Numbered from the stretch's first letter, positions 1-4,201 are shown. The stretch is 4,201 bases of DNA from a virus (IMGVR_UViG_2648501150_000013:1-4201); one strand, 5' to 3'. The notes: generated from the letters alone by a model not told the origin. A program made the numbers and translations.

Positions 1-560
1 TGGTTCCCAGCCTCATAGGCTACCCGCAACCAGTGCATGAATGTTTCCGCAGACACACAGCCGCAGTCCACATCGATTTCCCCGCGTTGCTGCTCCAGCC
101 ATTGCTCAAAATCTAACTTGTAAGCCTTACTTTCAGGTTCATCACCATTGAACTCGACTTTCTGCGACGCTATGAGAGCGGCTTCGTACTGTTCGCGAGT
201 GACAACCGATGTAAACGCACTGCGATCAAGGTCACTGATATCGCAAATAATGCCATCAATGGAATAATTCTTTGATGATTGGTAATTTTTATGGTGCGTA
301 CCAAAAAGAACCATAGCGCGACTACTACCTGGCATCGTAATGGATAGATGGCAAAAATCTTTTCCATCAGGCCATCCACGCCCCTTAGATAATTCCTTCA
401 CTAACAAGTCAATCAGTGTCATAGCGTTACCATCCTTGCAAGGCGCTAAAGCTATTTTGGCAAGCTCCAATACTTCATCTGCTGCGTATCCAGCACTGTG
501 ACCATACATTTCGATGCTGGTGATAATCTCTGATATGCGTTTTTTAGTGATTCTTGTCAT
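1..560 (-). CDS. Hypothetical prophage protein, partial (start codon at 560; C-terminus lies beyond the left window edge). Its C-proximal part is paralogous to the central module of the 1649..2161 gene.
   Basis: Manual translation of the minus strand from ATG at 560..558 gives an open frame with no stop to position 1 (MTRITKKRISEIITSIEMYGHSAGYAADEVLELAKIALAP...KLDFEQWLEQQRGEIDVDCGCVSAETFMHWLRVAYEAGN...). The ATG overlaps the TGA of the upstream gene (ATGA). It is missed by the ORF track because it has no stop inside the window. Confidence 0.7.
   Translation of the reverse strand, partial: MTRITKKRISEIITSIEMYGHSAGYAADEVLELAKIALAPCKDGNAMTLIDLLVKELSKGRGWPDGKDFCHLSITMPGSSRAMVLFGTHHKNYQSSKNYSIDGIICDISDLDRSAFTSVVTREQYEAALIASQKVEFNGDEPESKAYKLDFEQWLEQQRGEIDVDCGCVSAETFMHWLRVAYEAGN
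7..124. repeat. Diverged direct repeat, copy 1 (partner at 1878..1995).
   Basis: Ungapped alignment at a constant offset of 1871 nt. I counted about 80% identity over the 95 nt at 30..124. Both copies encode the FEQWLEQQ-x-G-x-IDVDCGCVS module of two different genes. Confidence 0.7.
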
Positions 561-766
561 AGTTTTATTTCCTTGCATGGTTCGCCTTTACGGCAAACAG
601 CTACACGGTCATTTCTTACATTAACCACGGTCACCGTTCCGTCATCGCATTGAATAACGATGAAAGGGTGTTCATTCTCTTTTGTGCAATGTTGCTGTTC
701 CCCTGCTATAACAGTGAGGGGAATTAATAAAATAATAATTACTGCGAATTTACTAAATGTTGCCAT
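557..766 (-). CDS. Small cysteine-containing protein (69 aa) with a predicted N-terminal signal peptide or membrane anchor; function unknown.
   Basis: ORF track. The N-terminus MATFSKFAVIIILLIPLTVIAG has a short charged n-region and a roughly 15-residue hydrophobic core; the remaining ~47 residues contain 4 Cys. The TGA stop overlaps the ATG of the next gene. The upstream SD is weak (AGAAAG). Confidence 0.6.
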   Translation of the reverse strand: MATFSKFAVIIILLIPLTVIAGEQQHCTKENEHPFIVIQCDDGTVTVVNVRNDRVAVCRKGEPCKEIKL

Positions 767-790
767 AGCAATCTTTCTTTCTGTTTTTCA

Positions 791-1084
791 TTATGGTTGA
801 ATCCAGTTATCTTCAATAGCAATGCTCAATCTTTGTAACCATTCTGCTAATTTCAGCATTGCTTCTCTTTCGCTTAAACCACGAGGAAAATCATCAAGCG
901 ATATTGTTGGCTTGAAGTTTCCCAAATTATCCATTTCAACGGTCAGATTTTGCTCCAGCACGGTATTCCTTACGCGGCTATTGTGCCGAAGCAAATATAC
1001 TGAACGTGATTTATTGGTTTTGTGGTCGAGCTGATATTCGGTAAGTATCATCTGGCTTCCGCCATGATTATTACCGCGCCACAT
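791..1084 (-). CDS. Hypothetical protein, 97 aa.
   Basis: ORF track. GGAG lies 5 nt upstream of the ATG at 1084. An alternative internal start at Met12 (MILTEYQ...) cannot be excluded. No family recognised. Confidence 0.6.
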   Translation of the reverse strand: MWRGNNHGGSQMILTEYQLDHKTNKSRSVYLLRHNSRVRNTVLEQNLTVEMDNLGNFKPTISLDDFPRGLSEREAMLKLAEWLQRLSIAIEDNWIQP

Positions 1085-1107
1085 AATTACTCCGTGTTAA
1101 TTGAAAT

Positions 1108-1389
1108 TTAGCTATTAATCTTCACTTTTATCGCGAACACCTTTACCGGTTTATCACCGAAGTGCGGATGTGTGATTGTCTTGATTTCATATCCGTCATA
1201 CGGAACATCAATTCTGCGGCTGGAATCGTCGCGCTTCGGATATCCCTTTGTGATAATCAGGCGGTCATACTTACGGTTAACGAGGCGCTTATTCCAGTAG
1301 TCATTACACAGGCGATACTCTTCCGTTTTATCTCCGCGAATCATGGCATCGAAGTATTCACCTTTGACGGCAAGTTGCAGGTTAGCCAT
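1108..1389 (-). CDS. ASCH-like (PUA-fold) small protein, 93 aa; start trimmed relative to the ORF track.
   Basis: A strong SD (GGAGGTGA) precedes the ATG at 1389..1387, so the start is set at MANLQLAVKGEYFDAMIRGDKTEEYR. The G-x-K-T-x-E-x-R motif near the N-terminus matches the ASCH-domain signature as I recall it (for example E. coli YqfB). The ATG overlaps the upstream TAA (TAATG). Confidence 0.6.
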   Translation of the reverse strand: MANLQLAVKGEYFDAMIRGDKTEEYRLCNDYWNKRLVNRKYDRLIITKGYPKRDDSSRRIDVPYDGYEIKTITHPHFGDKPVKVFAIKVKINS

Positions 1390-1649
1390 TACCTCACCTC
1401 CAGTCTCCATACCGCCTGACCAATCCGGCTGGCATGGGTATCTTTGGATACTGTTCCGTCTTTAGCCAGCTCCATAAGAATTTTGCGCAAATCTGCCGAG
1501 CGCCATTCTTCATCAGGAAATTCCTTCTCCATTGCCAACCGCAGATTCCAGGTTGCTATCGTGAATGGATATTCACCGCCGAGAGCTTTCTCTTGTAGGG
1601 CAGCACGGGAACGCATCACCTGCAAAACCTTCTCTTTTACATCCATCAT
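1389..1649 (-). CDS. Hypothetical protein, 86 aa; start trimmed relative to the ORF track.
   Basis: AAGGAGG lies 4 nt upstream of the ATG at 1649..1647 (MMDVKEKVLQ...). The ATG overlaps the TAA of the upstream DUF551-like gene (TAATG). The 24 codons upstream in the ORF track lie inside the preceding gene. Confidence 0.6.
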   Translation of the reverse strand: MMDVKEKVLQVMRSRAALQEKALGGEYPFTIATWNLRLAMEKEFPDEEWRSADLRKILMELAKDGTVSKDTHASRIGQAVWRLEVR

Positions 1650-2161
1650 TACGCCTCCTTCGGCGGTTCTGGTAGCGGCATCCAGTGTGACGGTTTCCAC
1701 GACGCACCAGGAATTATCCACCCATCATTAGCGTCAGGATGCCCGGGGATGTAAGTAGCCCATTTCATTCGCCAGTCACCTTTCCTGTCAAACTCCACGG
1801 CAACAAGAACGGCTGTTTTGGTATTCGGCATTCGCTCACTACAGCTTATCCAACCATCCGGAATTACCGGAGAGTTGCCAGCCTCATACGCCACACGCAT
1901 CCAGTGCAGAAGCATTTCAGTGCTCACACAGCCGCAATCAACATCAATTTTGCCGTGCTGCTGTTCCAGCCATTGCTCAAAAGTTAACTTGTAAGTTTGG
2001 CTTACAGGTTCTGCACTATCAGCTTCGCGCCGCTTCTGTAGCTCTGCTGCCATCGCTCTCACGACTTCAACTGGTGCCCTTGCAGCAAACTCTATGTTGG
2101 TGATCAGCTCATTAAGATATTGCTCGCCTGGATACTGTTTCTTATCGGTTATAGTGGTCAT
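1649..2161 (-). CDS. DUF551-like phage protein, 170 aa; start trimmed relative to the ORF track.
   Basis: AAGGAGAG lies 4 nt upstream of the ATG at 2161..2159 (MTTITDKKQYPGEQ...). The C-terminus (...GWIIPGASWKPSHWMPLPEPPKEA) resembles the conserved end of DUF551 prophage proteins as recalled; this needs an HMM check. The central module (FEQWLEQQHGKIDVDCGCVS...VAYEAGN) is shared with the partial gene at 1..560. Confidence 0.7.
   Translation of the reverse strand: MTTITDKKQYPGEQYLNELITNIEFAARAPVEVVRAMAAELQKRREADSAEPVSQTYKLTFEQWLEQQHGKIDVDCGCVSTEMLLHWMRVAYEAGNSPVIPDGWISCSERMPNTKTAVLVAVEFDRKGDWRMKWATYIPGHPDANDGWIIPGASWKPSHWMPLPEPPKEA
1878..1995. repeat. Diverged direct repeat, copy 2 (partner at 7..124).
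   Basis: See copy 1; lies inside the DUF551-like gene. Confidence 0.7.
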
Positions 2162-2210
2162 ATCACTCTCCTTTTCCCTGAAGCATAGCGGCACGGCAGG
2201 CATTCCACCC
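2159..2210. repeat. Direct repeat of about 52 nt, copy 1 (partner at 2812..2863), spanning a gene junction.
   Basis: catatcactctcc...gaagcatagcggc(a/g)cggcagg is near-identical in both copies, with compensating 1-nt indels. It covers the start codon of the downstream gene, the SD, the stop, and the last ~15 codons (GWNACRAAMLxGKGE) of paralogs A and B. Confidence 0.75.
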
Positions 2211-2540
2211 CTTCACATAACCGAACGCCATCAACTGATCACTCATGGCGGGCAGCATTGTGTGGGTCGTACTGATTTCTTCCGGCACTACCGGCGCTGG
2301 CGGGGCGATGCGTCCAAGCAACTTATTTACCTCTTTCGCCATCGCGTCATATTTATCTAAATGGCGATTAGCTTCTAAGCAGACTCGGCGCATCTGATCT
2401 GAGTTAACTCGTTTAACTGGATCTGCTTCCAGCGATGCCAGCGCAATCCGTGCCAGTTCCATTTGTTCACCACGGGTAAGCCCGTTTTCAAGCGGATTTT
2501 TAATGAACAATTCAATACGTTCTTTGGTAATAGTGGTCAT
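2163..2540 (-). CDS. Hypothetical phage protein, 125 aa (paralog A; possibly Ead/Ea22-like).
   Basis: ORF track. TAAGGAGT lies 5 nt upstream of the ATG at 2540. It shares three motif patches with the 2816..3229 gene (IALASLEA, PAPVVP, GWNACRAAMLxGKGE at the C-terminus). The Ea22-like label is from memory and is not verified. Confidence 0.7.
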   Translation of the reverse strand: MTTITKERIELFIKNPLENGLTRGEQMELARIALASLEADPVKRVNSDQMRRVCLEANRHLDKYDAMAKEVNKLLGRIAPPAPVVPEEISTTHTMLPAMSDQLMAFGYVKGWNACRAAMLQGKGE

Positions 2541-2550
2541 GTGTTACTCC

Positions 2551-2814
2551 TTAACCCGCAGTGCTTTCAACTGATGAGGGGAACAAAATCTTTTCATCAA
2601 ACCCTGCATTCATATCATGGACAGCAACACACCAATCCATTGACGAACGATTATCAAGAGCCTCCATGATTTCATCCATGCGGCGCAGGTCATACAGGTA
2701 AATGCTTTTATCGCCAATGGTGTAAAAACCAATTTTTTTCGGTGATGGGCAGCGATCAAGAACGTCCTGTAATTCGTTCAACCATGCCCGTTCTTTTTTT
2801 GTTAAAGTTGCCAT
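2551..2814 (-). CDS. Hypothetical protein, 87 aa; start trimmed relative to the ORF track.
   Basis: AAGGAGAG lies 4 nt upstream of the ATG at 2814..2812 (MATLTKKERAWLNELQDVL...). The ORF-track N-terminal extension would run through the C-terminus of the upstream gene. No family recognised. Confidence 0.6.
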   Translation of the reverse strand: MATLTKKERAWLNELQDVLDRCPSPKKIGFYTIGDKSIYLYDLRRMDEIMEALDNRSSMDWCVAVHDMNAGFDEKILFPSSVESTAG

Positions 2815-2863
2815 ATCACTCTCCTTTCCCATGAAGCATAGCGGCGCGGCAGGCGTTCCAGCC
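2812..2863. repeat. Direct repeat of about 52 nt, copy 2 (partner at 2159..2210).
   Basis: See copy 1. Confidence 0.75.
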
Positions 2864-3229
2864 TGTAGCGTATGCAGCCGCTTTGCTGCTGCCTTCAACT
2901 GGCGCATCCTGCCAATACATTTCATCCGGCACTACCGGCGCTGGCAAGGCAGCGTGATAGTAGAGTGGCATAGTTTTGTACAGTGGTTCGCCAGGACTTC
3001 CGTCAACCTGATTCCATTCTTCAACCCAGGCATCAACAACCGCTTTGCTGGTTGATACATGTTCTTCTGAATCTACATTTTGTCCTGATATACAGAACAT
3101 AACTGCCTCTGCTTCCAGCGATGCCAGAGCAATTTCATAAGCACGGCGCTCAATATTGTCTCGAACGTCCAAGCTGCCTATGCGCTCTTTGATTTCTTTA
3201 ATCAGTTCTTTGTCGGTAAAAGTGGTCAT
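2816..3229 (-). CDS. Hypothetical phage protein, 137 aa (paralog B; possibly Ead/Ea22-like); start trimmed relative to the ORF track.
   Basis: AAGGAGA lies 5 nt upstream of the ATG at 3229..3227 (MTTFTDKELIKEI...). The C-terminus ...ATGWNACRAAMLHGKGE and the internal IALASLEAE and PAPVVPDE patches match paralog A. Confidence 0.7.
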   Translation of the reverse strand: MTTFTDKELIKEIKERIGSLDVRDNIERRAYEIALASLEAEAVMFCISGQNVDSEEHVSTSKAVVDAWVEEWNQVDGSPGEPLYKTMPLYYHAALPAPVVPDEMYWQDAPVEGSSKAAAYATGWNACRAAMLHGKGE

Positions 3230-3230
3230 A

Positions 3231-3590
3231 TCAATCTCCTTTGGTACCAATGTTTACAGCCTGGCAAGCCTCTTTGAGCACCCAGTCAACAGCGTCTTTC
3301 CATGCTCCGGTTTCGACTGGCGGATTCTCACGCTTTACCTGTTCATAGAAACGCACTGCTTTAATCAATCCTTCTGGTGTCAGTGGCACAGGCGGGACAG
3401 TGAATAAGGCCTGAATCTCATAGCTCGGCCTGTCGTTGCAATCCTCTTTTGTCGGGACATATTTCCAGTCACCAACCCACTGCTTCCCCTGAAAGTCTGT
3501 AACGCCTTTTTTCACGTAGCGATATCGCCATGCCACTGGTTTTGCCTGCCCTGCCTTTTCATGCCCTTCCTGATAATTAATCTCGCTCAT
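3231..3590 (-). CDS. Hypothetical protein, 119 aa.
   Basis: ORF track. The ATG at 3590..3588 overlaps the TGA of the upstream small ORF (ATGA). The SD is weak. The protein ends ...GTKGD, immediately followed by the conserved junction and the next ATG. Confidence 0.6.
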   Translation of the reverse strand: MSEINYQEGHEKAGQAKPVAWRYRYVKKGVTDFQGKQWVGDWKYVPTKEDCNDRPSYEIQALFTVPPVPLTPEGLIKAVRFYEQVKRENPPVETGAWKDAVDWVLKEACQAVNIGTKGD

Positions 3591-3763
3591 TCATCGCCCC
3601 ACTCATCACAATATGCTTCGACCGGTGTTTTCCCTGCTTCATAATCATCACGCCATGCTTCAGCATCAGCGGCACTTCCACCGCGTAACTCTGCATAATC
3701 CATTAACAGTTCATGCCATTCTTCAAAACTGGCGTTATATTTAGTTGAACCAAAATCAGCCAT
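3587..3763 (-). CDS. Small acidic protein, 58 aa, not in the ORF track (below its length cutoff).
   Basis: Manual translation from ATG 3763..3761 to TGA 3589..3587 gives MADFGSTKYNASFEEWHELLMDYAELRGGSAADAEAWRDDYEAGKTPVEAYCDEWGDE, with 16 D/E against 4 K/R. GAGGAAG lies about 9 nt upstream. It fills the otherwise empty gap between two coupled genes, and its stop overlaps the next ATG. Confidence 0.5.
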   Translation of the reverse strand: MADFGSTKYNASFEEWHELLMDYAELRGGSAADAEAWRDDYEAGKTPVEAYCDEWGDE

Positions 3764-3938
3764 TTTGTTCTTCCTCTTCGTCTTTTATTTCGTGGTATGA
3801 GTAATTGCAGTAGTTAAAGAAAATATCTTTAGCTTCATCCTGTATTTCATCTGGTGTTGCATCATCATCCACTTCGAATTCATCCTCGAAATCTCCACCG
3901 GCTATTCCCGTTTCAATAATTATTTTGAATTTTCGCAT
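3756..3938 (-). CDS. Small highly acidic protein, 60 aa.
   Basis: ORF track. MRKFKIIIETGIAGGDFEDEFEVDDDATPDEIQDEAKDIFFNYCNYSYHEIKDEEEEQNG has 20 D/E against 5 K/R. There is no alternative in-frame start upstream, where an in-frame TAA lies. No canonical SD is close to the ATG, and a hairpin sits just upstream. Confidence 0.5.
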   Translation of the reverse strand: MRKFKIIIETGIAGGDFEDEFEVDDDATPDEIQDEAKDIFFNYCNYSYHEIKDEEEEQNG

Positions 3939-4028
3939 TTCACTACCGCCCTTTCGGACGGCCTCCTGATGTTCTGAGGGTGCAGGAATCCCTCCGGTTA
4001 AGGATTAAATTTTTAACAGAGCTAAATT
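3939..4028 (-). promoter_or_regulatory. Intergenic leader upstream of the acidic gene pair: an AT-rich stretch plus a stem-loop with a GNRA-type loop in the minus-strand transcript.
   Basis: This is the only intergenic gap longer than 25 nt in the window. Minus-strand RNA CCGUCC-GAAA-GGGCGG (plus coordinates 3944..3959) forms a 6-bp stem with one G-U wobble, which on the plus strand would be a C-A mismatch. A second 5-bp stem, GAGGG/CCCTC, lies at 3975..3993. An AT-rich segment spans about 4000..4028. Confidence 0.3.
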
Positions 4029-4201
4029 TAATTATTCAGTTCTGGATTTTGTCGCCCTGCGTATCCGCGCTTTCGCGTTACGCTCAATCTGAATTAGCTT
4101 TTCTATATTTTTTCGCCTTTCCCGCTCCTCCTGACGCAAGAGCCTTACATCATCTGCCAGTCTGGTTTCTCTTTTCGCCACAGAGAGCATCCAGTCAAAT
4201 G
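4029..4201 (-). CDS. Possible small basic protein, partial or about 53 aa, Lys/Arg/Glu-rich and coiled-coil-like.
   Basis: The minus-strand frame is open from the right window edge to TAA at 4031..4029 (...MLSVAKRETRLADDVRLLRQEERERRKNIEKLIQIERNAKARIRRATKSRTE). A candidate ATG sits at 4190..4188, but the true start may lie outside the window. The composition is low-complexity, so this could be chance. Confidence 0.3.

Follow-up and report, generated by a model that had tools for sequence, protein, structure and literature searches.

The window analyzed here is the whole of the 4,201-nucleotide (nt) stretch IMGVR_UViG_2648501150_000013:1-4201, which is an entire contig of an Escherichia coli draft assembly and belongs to an E. 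coli phage-plasmid. Five of its genes, namely the partial gene g0, the DUF551 gene g5, the paralogs A and B, and g9, form one recombining Ead/Ea22-DUF551 network with at least five members in the window. With a probability of roughly 0.8, this family is built from interchangeable modules that recombination exchanges at short conserved joints; the same reading includes the proposal that the K/R-G-E (K/RGE) ending of such proteins is a ribosome-binding site. The initial annotation of the window had proposed a mosaic family of shuffled shared modules, which is borne out by repeats far above chance and by the reassortment of modules across loci. Its four members, A, B, the DUF551 gene, and the partial gene, are joined by a fifth, g9 (3231..3590), which shares the B-type middle and C-terminal modules.

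The proteins follow a common layout. A helical N-terminal module, the N-module (MTTIT...), is followed by joint L1 (IALASLEAEPV), a middle module, joint L2 (PPAPVVPEE), a short module, and joint L3 (GWNACRAAML). Subsequently, the protein either ends with GKGE-stop and the next gene begins immediately, or it reads through to more modules, joint L4 (GNSPVTPDGWISCSERMP), the DUF551 core, and joint L5 (HWMPLPEPP). The conserved gene junction is AAA GGA GAG TGA t ATG ACC ACT. The Pfam domain Ead_Ea22 is another N-module with the same LEAE(A/P)V joint at its end. The FEQW...CGC...YEAGN module (FEQW-CGC module) takes the slot from AEPVSQTYKL to L4, which in g5 relatives holds at least six other modules or is empty; it recurs in 261 different 50%-identity protein clusters, and its position varies between the N-terminus and residue 319. 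The features of the window on which the following sections draw are listed by position.

3..560, minus strand: g0, partial coding sequence (CDS), 186 of 254 codons with the C-terminus beyond the window edge; N-module MTRITKKRISEIIT...ELAKIALAP, insert of ~95 residues, FEQW-CGC-YEAGN module; PHROG matches are split by module.
3..134, minus strand: g0 copy of the FEQW...IDVDCGCVS...HW..VAYEAGN module; repeat D1, found by blastp against g5.
1649..2161, minus strand: g5, 170-amino-acid (aa) DUF551 protein; N-module MTTITDKKQYPGEQYL..., AEPVSQTYKL joint, FEQW-CGC module, L4, DUF551 core, L5.
1661..1690, minus strand: joint L5, SHWMPLPEPP, end of DUF551; breakpoints 1654, 1662, and 1687 in related loci.
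1826..1879, minus strand: joint L4, GNSPVIPDGWISCSERMP; overlap of the matches to the P1-like elements L088 and L116; codons near-invariant in 25 relatives.
1874..2014, minus strand: g5 copy of the FEQW-CGC-YEAGN module with its AEPVSQTYKL lead-in; repeat D1.
2147..2178, minus strand: A/g5 junction cassette, GGA AAA GGA GAG TGA T ATG ACC ACT ATA ACC; repeat D3, four copies.
2163..2540, minus strand: A, 125-aa CDS; N-module, L1, helical middle module, L2, short module, L3, GKGE-stop.
2181..2210, minus strand: joint L3 of A, GWNACRAAML; repeat D2; motif invariant in distant genera.
2277..2303, minus strand: joint L2 of A, PPAPVVPEE; repeat D4; breakpoint 2277 in eight loci.
2415..2447, minus strand: joint L1 of A, IALASLEADPV; repeat D7; 45 related-locus matches stop at 2415-2419.
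2526..2557, minus strand: g7/A junction cassette with Shine-Dalgarno (SD) sequence and ATG ACC ACT ATT ACC; repeat D3.
2551..2814, minus strand: g7, 87 aa, non-family protein (phrog_1714) between B and A.
2800..2831, minus strand: B/g7 junction cassette, GGG AAA GGA GAG TGA T ATG GCA ACT; repeats D2 and D3.
2816..3229, minus strand: B, 137-aa CDS; N-module MTTFTDKELIKEIKERIG..., L1, middle module, L2, short module, L3, GKGE-stop.
2834..2863, minus strand: joint L3 of B, GWNACRAAML; repeat D2; breakpoints 2832 and 2860.
2921..2947, minus strand: joint L2 of B, LPAPVVPDE; repeat D4; breakpoints 2939 and 2944.
3101..3133, minus strand: joint L1 of B, IALASLEAEAV; repeat D7; breakpoints 3097-3108 and 3134.
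3215..3246, minus strand: g9/B junction cassette, ACC AAA GGA GAT TGA T ATG ACC ACT TTT ACC; repeat D3.
3231..3590, minus strand: g9, 119 aa, fifth family member; MSEINYQ start, AKPVAW, middle module, PVPLTPEG joint (3367-3398), C-terminal module, TKGD end.

The shared patches were examined by comparing the window with itself, and the off-diagonal similarity lies far above chance. The window contains 24 identical 14-mer pairs and a longest exact repeat of 21 nt, compared to a mean of 0.09 pairs (maximum 2) and a longest repeat of at most 15 nt in 200 dinucleotide shuffles, so that chance is ruled out. The IALASLEA patch is 26 nt long with one mismatch, as first described, but its copy in B had been misplaced by 10 nt (3098..3123); it lies at 3108..3133 and pairs with 2422..2447 in A inside repeat D7 (2414-2447 / 3100-3133, 91% identity). 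The PAPVVP patch is identical over 21 nt (2281..2301 and 2925..2945), with the copy in A shifted by one position from its earlier placement. The C-terminal GWNACRAAMLxGKGE patch common to A and B is embedded in a 74-nt repeat (2137-2210 / 2790-2863, 82% identical) that continues through the stop codon and the ribosome-binding site into the first codons of the following gene (D2/D3). The FEQW-CGC module that had been recognized in both g0 and g5 corresponds to repeat D1 (3-148 / 1874-2019, 146 nt, 77% identity), with 70.6% protein identity over 51 residues in blastp. The likeness that had been seen between ELAKIALAP in g0 and IALASLEA holds for the protein only, with a nucleotide identity of ~53% by count. 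All shared patches are direct repeats, and the inverted repeats that are present are short and unrelated to them.

Profile searches tie the five genes together. A, B, and g9 all match phrog_660 (E=2.9e-45 for g9) and phrog_5117, while the N-termini of g0, g5, A, and B match phrog_60 from profile position 116 and their N-modules each begin with MT(T/R)(I/F)T. The partial gene and the DUF551 gene had been described as having unrelated N-terminal regions; both start with MT(R/T)IT, and given their common phrog_60 match from position 116 these regions represent alternative alleles of a single N-module slot. The C-terminal module of g9 substitutes for the B-type C-terminus in relatives, which yields hybrids such as P0024 and P0089. 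In the suggested Pfam searches, residues 103-168 of g5 match the DUF551 model PF04448 with 76 bits against a cutoff of 22, and no PF04448 match was found in g0, A, B, or g9, making g5 the sole DUF551 member and the sole Pfam match; the Ea22 model PF13935 is matched by none of g0, g5, A, B, and g9 at E<=0.1. The full-length form of g0 is represented by P0121, a 254-aa protein that is 100% identical over 186 aa and is encoded on contigs of up to 97 kb.

The exchange of modules becomes visible when the window is compared with related loci. In a blastn comparison with ~100 loci, 25 of 41 clusters of homology endpoints fall inside the within-window repeats, while 29% would be expected (p=2e-5); only repeats found within the window were used as a-priori intervals. 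The breakpoints are located at 2415 (L1, 45 matches) and 2277 (L2) in A, at 2860 (L3), 2944 (L2), 3102-3108, and 3134 (both L1) in B, at 1826, 1870, and 1879 (L4) as well as 1662 and 1687 (L5) in g5, and at 2818/2827 and 3229/3231 in the gene junctions, with ~58 matches ending at 2818 and 2826-2827 in the B/g7 cassette. In the 61 proteins that carry all three anchors, 7 N, 11 M, and 6 C alleles are arranged in 27 combinations. The four-gamete quartets are complete for N1/N2 x M1/M3 across L1 and for M1/M3 x C0/C2 across L2, which demonstrates independent assortment. The modules thus recombine independently with breakpoints on the shared patches, and the genes clearly do not co-vary as whole units, as is evident from these breakpoints, the quartets, and a recombinant contig, the window itself.

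The window is composed of three segments with near-identical counterparts elsewhere. Positions 1-1879 are 99.9% identical to L088, a 92.6-kb P1-like contig, positions 1826-2827 are 99.2% identical to L116, another P1-like plasmid, and positions 2415-4201 are 99.8% identical to the lambdoid prophage H29. The matches to L088 and L116 overlap exactly at L4. Judged from these alignments, the window appears to be a recent three-part recombinant, with L4 as the likely crossover zone of one exchange. It also consists of blocks of at least 100 bp with at least 90% identity that end at partial homology, as in phage mosaics in the sense of De Paepe 2014.

Wherever two proteins have the same module, the module is 90-100% identical. 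The sequence between the patches has therefore been swapped for alternative, mostly unalignable modules and has not diverged fast. Of the earlier suggestion of domain shuffling or gene conversion in a fast-evolving family, the shuffling stands, whereas modules are replaced instead of diverging fast, and gene conversion between the paralogs of the window is neither needed nor shown. The alignment set comprised 70 distinct family open reading frames (ORFs) from 85 loci and 360 proteins, taken as the best 120 from each of three homologue searches (E<=0.001) that 2246, 837, and 7436 proteins had passed. Among the 120 homologues of B listed from 2246, B segments with 90-100% identity are fused to DUF551, Ead_Ea22, or g9-type parts. 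The N-module of B is joined at L1 to a DUF551 protein in L004 and in phage 933W. A and the DUF551 C-terminus are fused into one ORF in L001 and L002, while in the window a stop-SD-start-N-module cassette splits A from g5. A 55-aa ORF that consists of the N-module of A, L1, and a 13-residue tail (PVVFWFEKYQEGATA) is found in 25 of the 85 loci, for example at 1509-1676 of L011 (homologous to window 2415-2540), and represents either a frequent product of truncation or an N-module that functions on its own.

The comparison of loci resolves the module grammar, the independent assortment, and the clustering of breakpoints, and it points to the recent L4 crossover in this contig. Each protein is a string of small modules separated by the motifs L1-L5, which are conserved at the protein level. 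Because these functionally constrained motifs are common to alleles that otherwise cannot be aligned, they leave islands of 20-55 nt of near-identical DNA. In the proposed mechanism, homologous or homeologous recombination in these joints would swap the flanking modules in frame. The recombinase may be a phage enzyme of the Red/RecT type or the host RecA, the enzymology being inferred. The joint lengths fit the minimal efficient pairing segments of 23-27 bp for Red-beta and 31-34 bp for RecA that were reported by De Paepe et al. (PMC3945230), and in phage 933W only a few genes separate the related gene set from exo, bet, and gam. The exchange partners would be prophages and phage-plasmids that reside in the same cell as well as infecting phages, and the outcome would be new module combinations, gene fusions, fissions, duplications, and deletions.

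Several points weigh against this reading. The recombination is seen by comparison alone and not directly. The blast endpoints necessarily fall at the far edge of any conserved patch, so the breakpoint test shows an exchange of flanks around the patches and not the exact crossover point. The window is one whole draft contig, and its coverage stays below 80% in every complete genome or phage. The allele frequencies are biased, as g7, B, g0, and A served as the entry points for sampling the loci. The structure models are weak, with a mean predicted local distance difference test score (pLDDT) of 65 for B and 45 for g5, the latter model being unusable, and a Foldseek search of the B model against the PDB returned no match at E<=0.001.

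The origin and the conservation of the joints have to be considered separately. When joints in proteins with unrelated flanks are compared, 7-29% of the synonymous codons differ, as opposed to the 60-68% expected from amino-acid constraint alone, and rare codons are fixed in L4 (ATA, AGT, CGA) and L5 (CTA). The joints are therefore identical by descent and not convergent. It is conceivable that they are in addition maintained at the DNA level as dedicated recombination sites, in which case the family would be a selected diversity-generating cassette system, akin to polymorphic toxins with their conserved pre-toxin motifs, and not a passive by-product of conserved protein motifs. The rare codons of L4 and L5 fit this idea, as does the synonymous difference in L4, the only joint that is lower (2%) than its adjoining module, the DUF551 core (9%). 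Even Stagnimonas and Edwardsiella have almost the same L3 codons, every crossover preserves the reading frame, and paralogs occur in tandem, with up to 13 places per genome. In comparisons of same-module pairs, however, L1, L2, L3, and L5 show a synonymous difference equal to or above that of the module interior, by which a general hyperconservation of the joints at the DNA level is rejected for these four. The single-copy neighbor g7, with a synonymous difference of 8.5%, is as conserved as the joints.

As protein motifs, the joints are old. The L3 decapeptide GWNACRAAML shows no variation far beyond Escherichia, across Enterobacter, Leclercia, Edwardsiella, Brenneria, Aquitalea, and Stagnimonas (L097-L115), and in most of these taxa its codons are near-identical as well (TGG AAC GCC TGC CGC GCC GCC ATG CT-). 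Several synonymous changes are found only in Aquitalea and Brenneria, and as both keep the motif with altered codons, selection at the protein level is sufficient. Furthermore, no recombinase, reverse transcriptase, or inverted repeat of such a system was found in the window. Chi (GCTGGTGG, up to one mismatch) is not enriched at the joints, with four matches compared to 2.8 expected. The joints are taken as conserved protein motifs and not as specially conserved DNA, and their maintenance as dedicated sites is unlikely. It is equally doubtful that the five in-frame joints and the portable stop-SD-start-N-module cassette together constitute a selected recombination grammar, for which L4 would be the clearest DNA-level case. 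If they did, lambdoid phages and P1-like phage-plasmids could use this grammar to tap a single pool of domains of 30-60 residues and to go on producing new multi-domain accessory proteins; it would represent a diversity generator at the protein level under the pressure of an arms race against variable targets or defenses of the host.

An artificial origin of the arrangement, in which a short-read assembler merged two to three co-resident elements via the joints, has a low probability. The window is a complete 4201-bp draft contig without a counterpart covering at least 80% of it in any complete genome or phage, and its segment boundaries fall on repeats of 34-54 nt, in line with such an error. 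Every junction is nevertheless seen independently: L117 has the same order B-g7-A-DUF551-g4-g3-g2-g0-like, P0242 to P0244, from contigs as long as 57 kb, are built like g5 (96% identity), L033 reads across the A/g5 junction, and L080 does so across L5. The conclusion on the family would hold even for a chimeric contig.

Gene conversion between the tandem genes A and B within this genome could likewise have made the shared patches, as A and B share direct repeats, offset by 644-686 nt, that are 91-100% identical. This is very improbable, since the A-type and B-type L1 of the window are typical of these alleles in genomes that lack the other paralog (L001, L003) and the patches still differ at allele-specific sites; intragenomic conversion is thus unsupported. 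Conversion should make the A and B patches vary together inside a genome while differing from one genome to another, and the data show the reverse. That the patches are merely purifying-selection motifs of anciently diverged paralogs without ongoing exchange, as the protein-level conservation across genera and the protein-only likeness of ELAKIALAP and IALASLEA might suggest, is hardly credible given a codon identity in the joints far above amino-acid constraint, complete four-gamete quartets, and blocks of 99-100% identity that stop at the joints.

According to Dydecka et al., all Ea22 proteins end with K/R-G-E, the significance of which was called unknown (PMC7093339). A and B end with GKGE and g9 with TKGD and therefore have this terminal feature of the Ea22-like family. 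In the present family it is encoded by AAA GGA GAG (AAAGGAGAG), a canonical SD sequence, for which AAGGGTGAA would be a synonymous alternative. In all 24 of 24 family ORFs that end with [KR]G[EDG], an ATG or GTG lies 1-3 nt past the stop codon. Such sites are found at 2166-2177, 2819-2830, and 3234-3245 of the window, at 548-560 of L092, and at 4103-4115 and 3546-3560 of L124. The lambda ea22 gene retains ATCAAAGGAGAGTGA (ATC AAA GGA GAG TGA GA) with no start codon behind it, an ending that reads as a relic junction. In phage 933W, the Ea22-like gene ends with AAA AGA GGT GAG TAATG, where an unannotated ORF of 52 codons begins, and a non-family neighbor ends with NKGE followed by a GTG start. 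The K/RGE ending is accordingly best understood, from its codons and position, as the SD sequence of a translationally coupled downstream gene and not as a protein feature. It does not define a protein family, because it also ends the non-family gene of 933W and serves as the SD sequence of the next gene. RNA structures at junctions and joints are no more stable than in shuffled sequences (z-scores of -0.2 to +1.6), and no Rfam family was matched. The unannotated 933W ORF (MRVACIGLLPYPTRFW...) is located at 3946-4104 of L124 on the minus strand and begins at the TAATG overlap with the Ea22-like stop codon.

The closest known relatives are the Ea22 proteins (Ead_Ea22, PF13935) of lambda and Stx phages, which are mosaic three-part proteins (PMC7093339, PMC10834534, PMC8614690) and belong to the same recombining pool. 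PF13935-positive proteins such as P0089 have the middle module of B and the C-terminus of g9, joined at LEAEAV, and g9 begins with MSEINYQ where lambda has MSEINSQ, with the same IKGE/TKGD junction at the end. A, B, g0, g5, and g9 differ in that they use other N-modules without a PF13935 match; PF13935 spans the N-terminal and coiled-coil region (residues 2-101 in lambda Ea22) and is matched through their N-terminal parts by P0030, P0055, P0089, P0105, and lambda Ea22. In addition, the window is located in a P1-like phage-plasmid and not in the exo-xis region of a lambdoid phage. The Ea22 papers report a DUF551 C-terminus in the Ea22 V2 variant and note the gene fission in 933W (PMC7093339, PMC10834534, PMC8614690). 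They describe the blocks at a coarse grain, without the five joints, the breakpoint statistics, and an explanation of K/RGE.

g5 is a clear member of the DUF551 proteins (PF04448), which include YfdS of the E. coli prophage CPS-53 and EaA-like proteins of P22, and the conserved edges of DUF551 are L4 and L5. In this family, by contrast, DUF551 is one of several interchangeable C-terminal modules, and A, B, g0, and g9 lack it. The general mosaicism of temperate phages by relaxed homologous recombination at flanks that are conserved in part (Martinsohn 2008, PMC2327257; De Paepe 2014, PMC3945230) is alike in its blocks of >90% identity bounded by short regions of lower similarity, in joint lengths near the minimal pairing segments, and in the Red genes that adjoin the same gene set in 933W. 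Here, the exchange points are in frame within coding sequence and the units are modules of 30-60 residues, not genes or gene blocks.

Polymorphic toxins such as CdiA (VENN) and Rhs (PxxxxDPxGL) combine a conserved N-terminal part and a short motif with variable C-terminal cassettes that are swapped by homologous recombination, and they occur in several copies per genome. The present family shares these traits but has several joints per protein, not one. No window protein matched toxin, immunity, or defense models, and the downstream g7 is 99-100% conserved and does not co-vary with the upstream C-terminus. Programmed diversification by diversity-generating retroelements, shufflons, or invertible cassettes does not apply, as the window encodes no reverse transcriptase or site-specific recombinase domains and its patches are direct repeats.

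The coarse-grain mosaicism of Ea22, the portability of DUF551, and the fission in 933W are already known, and the mosaicism that recombination creates in temperate phages is well established. The five-joint grammar, the quantitative evidence on breakpoints and assortment, the module pool shared between P1-like phage-plasmids and lambdoid phages, and the explanation of K/RGE as a ribosome-binding site appear to be new and are absent from the literature searched. They provide a fine-grained, testable map of the units, joints, and exchange partners of one of the commonest prophage gene families of unknown function in E. coli. The family names Ea22-like, DUF551, and eaa hence denote single modules and not proteins, and many recombinants are annotated wrongly on the basis of homology, either as pseudogenes or as "partial in the middle of a contig". 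Pseudogene labels of this kind ("incomplete; partial in the middle of a contig") were given by the Prokaryotic Genome Annotation Pipeline to several recombinant genes of the family in L002, L003, and L005; some of them may have arisen artificially, because a mosaic gene was compared with full-length references.

The functions of the modules are approached through models and relatives. In the AlphaFold2 monomer model of B (mean pLDDT 65, predicted template modeling score 0.29), a helical hairpin at residues 6-39 (pLDDT ~78) and a helix at residues 114-133, which carries GWNACRAAML, are confident, while the middle is not. Sequence searches of solved structures with g5 and B returned nothing, and neither PADLOC defense models nor NCBIfam models were matched. 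By analogy with the tetrameric, pro-lysogenic Ea22, a working model may be drawn in which a common N-terminal helical-hairpin handle presents interchangeable small domains that are predicted to bind host or phage targets; the handle perhaps has a role in oligomerization. Among relatives, Ea22 promotes lysogeny and is tetrameric (PMC7093339, PMC10834534); it combines a tetrameric coiled coil with a dimeric C-terminal domain. A deletion mutant of yfdS, which encodes a DUF551 protein, is sensitive to H2O2, and overexpressed yfdQRS suppresses the hda-185 mutation (PMC4776307). These roles concern the relatives only.

In the FEQW-CGC module, the C-G-C motif, a histidine eight residues on, a tryptophan, and acidic residues are invariant in 147 representatives, for which reason a metal site is possible. 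g10 (3587-3763, minus strand, 58 aa) aligns with this module in hhalign (probability 72%, E=3e-5, 42 columns) and is probably a distant stand-alone relative of it. It lacks the cysteine pair and the histidine, which counts against the idea of a metal site.

Of 5426 complete E. coli genomes, 4217 contain matches to parts of the window; the number of such places per genome has a median of 2 and reaches at most 13, and the total is ~12,000. The exact A protein is found on 20 other contigs, where it adjoins g7 and a DUF551 gene. The closest contexts are P1/P7-like phage-plasmids with the C1 repressor, phd/doc, and HumD, together with the region that follows the replication genes in lambdoid prophages. 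In L117, the gene order given above lies beside the Pol III theta subunit, HumD, and phd/doc and thus identifies a P1-like phage-plasmid. The right half of the window is also present in lambdoid prophages, between the replication genes and hokD/rusA/Q. Where the same gene pool occurs in lambdoid prophages, it follows the replication genes or lies in the exo-xis region. Short contigs from assemblies or metagenome-assembled genomes labeled as Segatella copri, Collinsella, Bacillota, and Haemophilus sputorum (L093-L096) carry the family at 82-95% identity, which is probably due to binning or sample contamination.

The window belongs to an operon of early accessory genes in a P1/P7-like phage-plasmid. 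Its 13 ORFs are all encoded on the minus strand and densely packed, with most junctions overlapping or spanning 1-to-10 nt. No promoters or terminators were found on the coding strand of the window, where the count equals the shuffle expectation, and the genes are therefore read as a single operon. g7 is conserved at 99-100% whichever modules flank it. The sole sizeable non-coding stretch is an AT-rich gap of 93 nt between g12 and g11 (3939-4031). g1 (557-766, 69 aa, phrog_20764) has a hydrophobic N-terminal segment and four cysteines, and its product is possibly a secreted or membrane protein.

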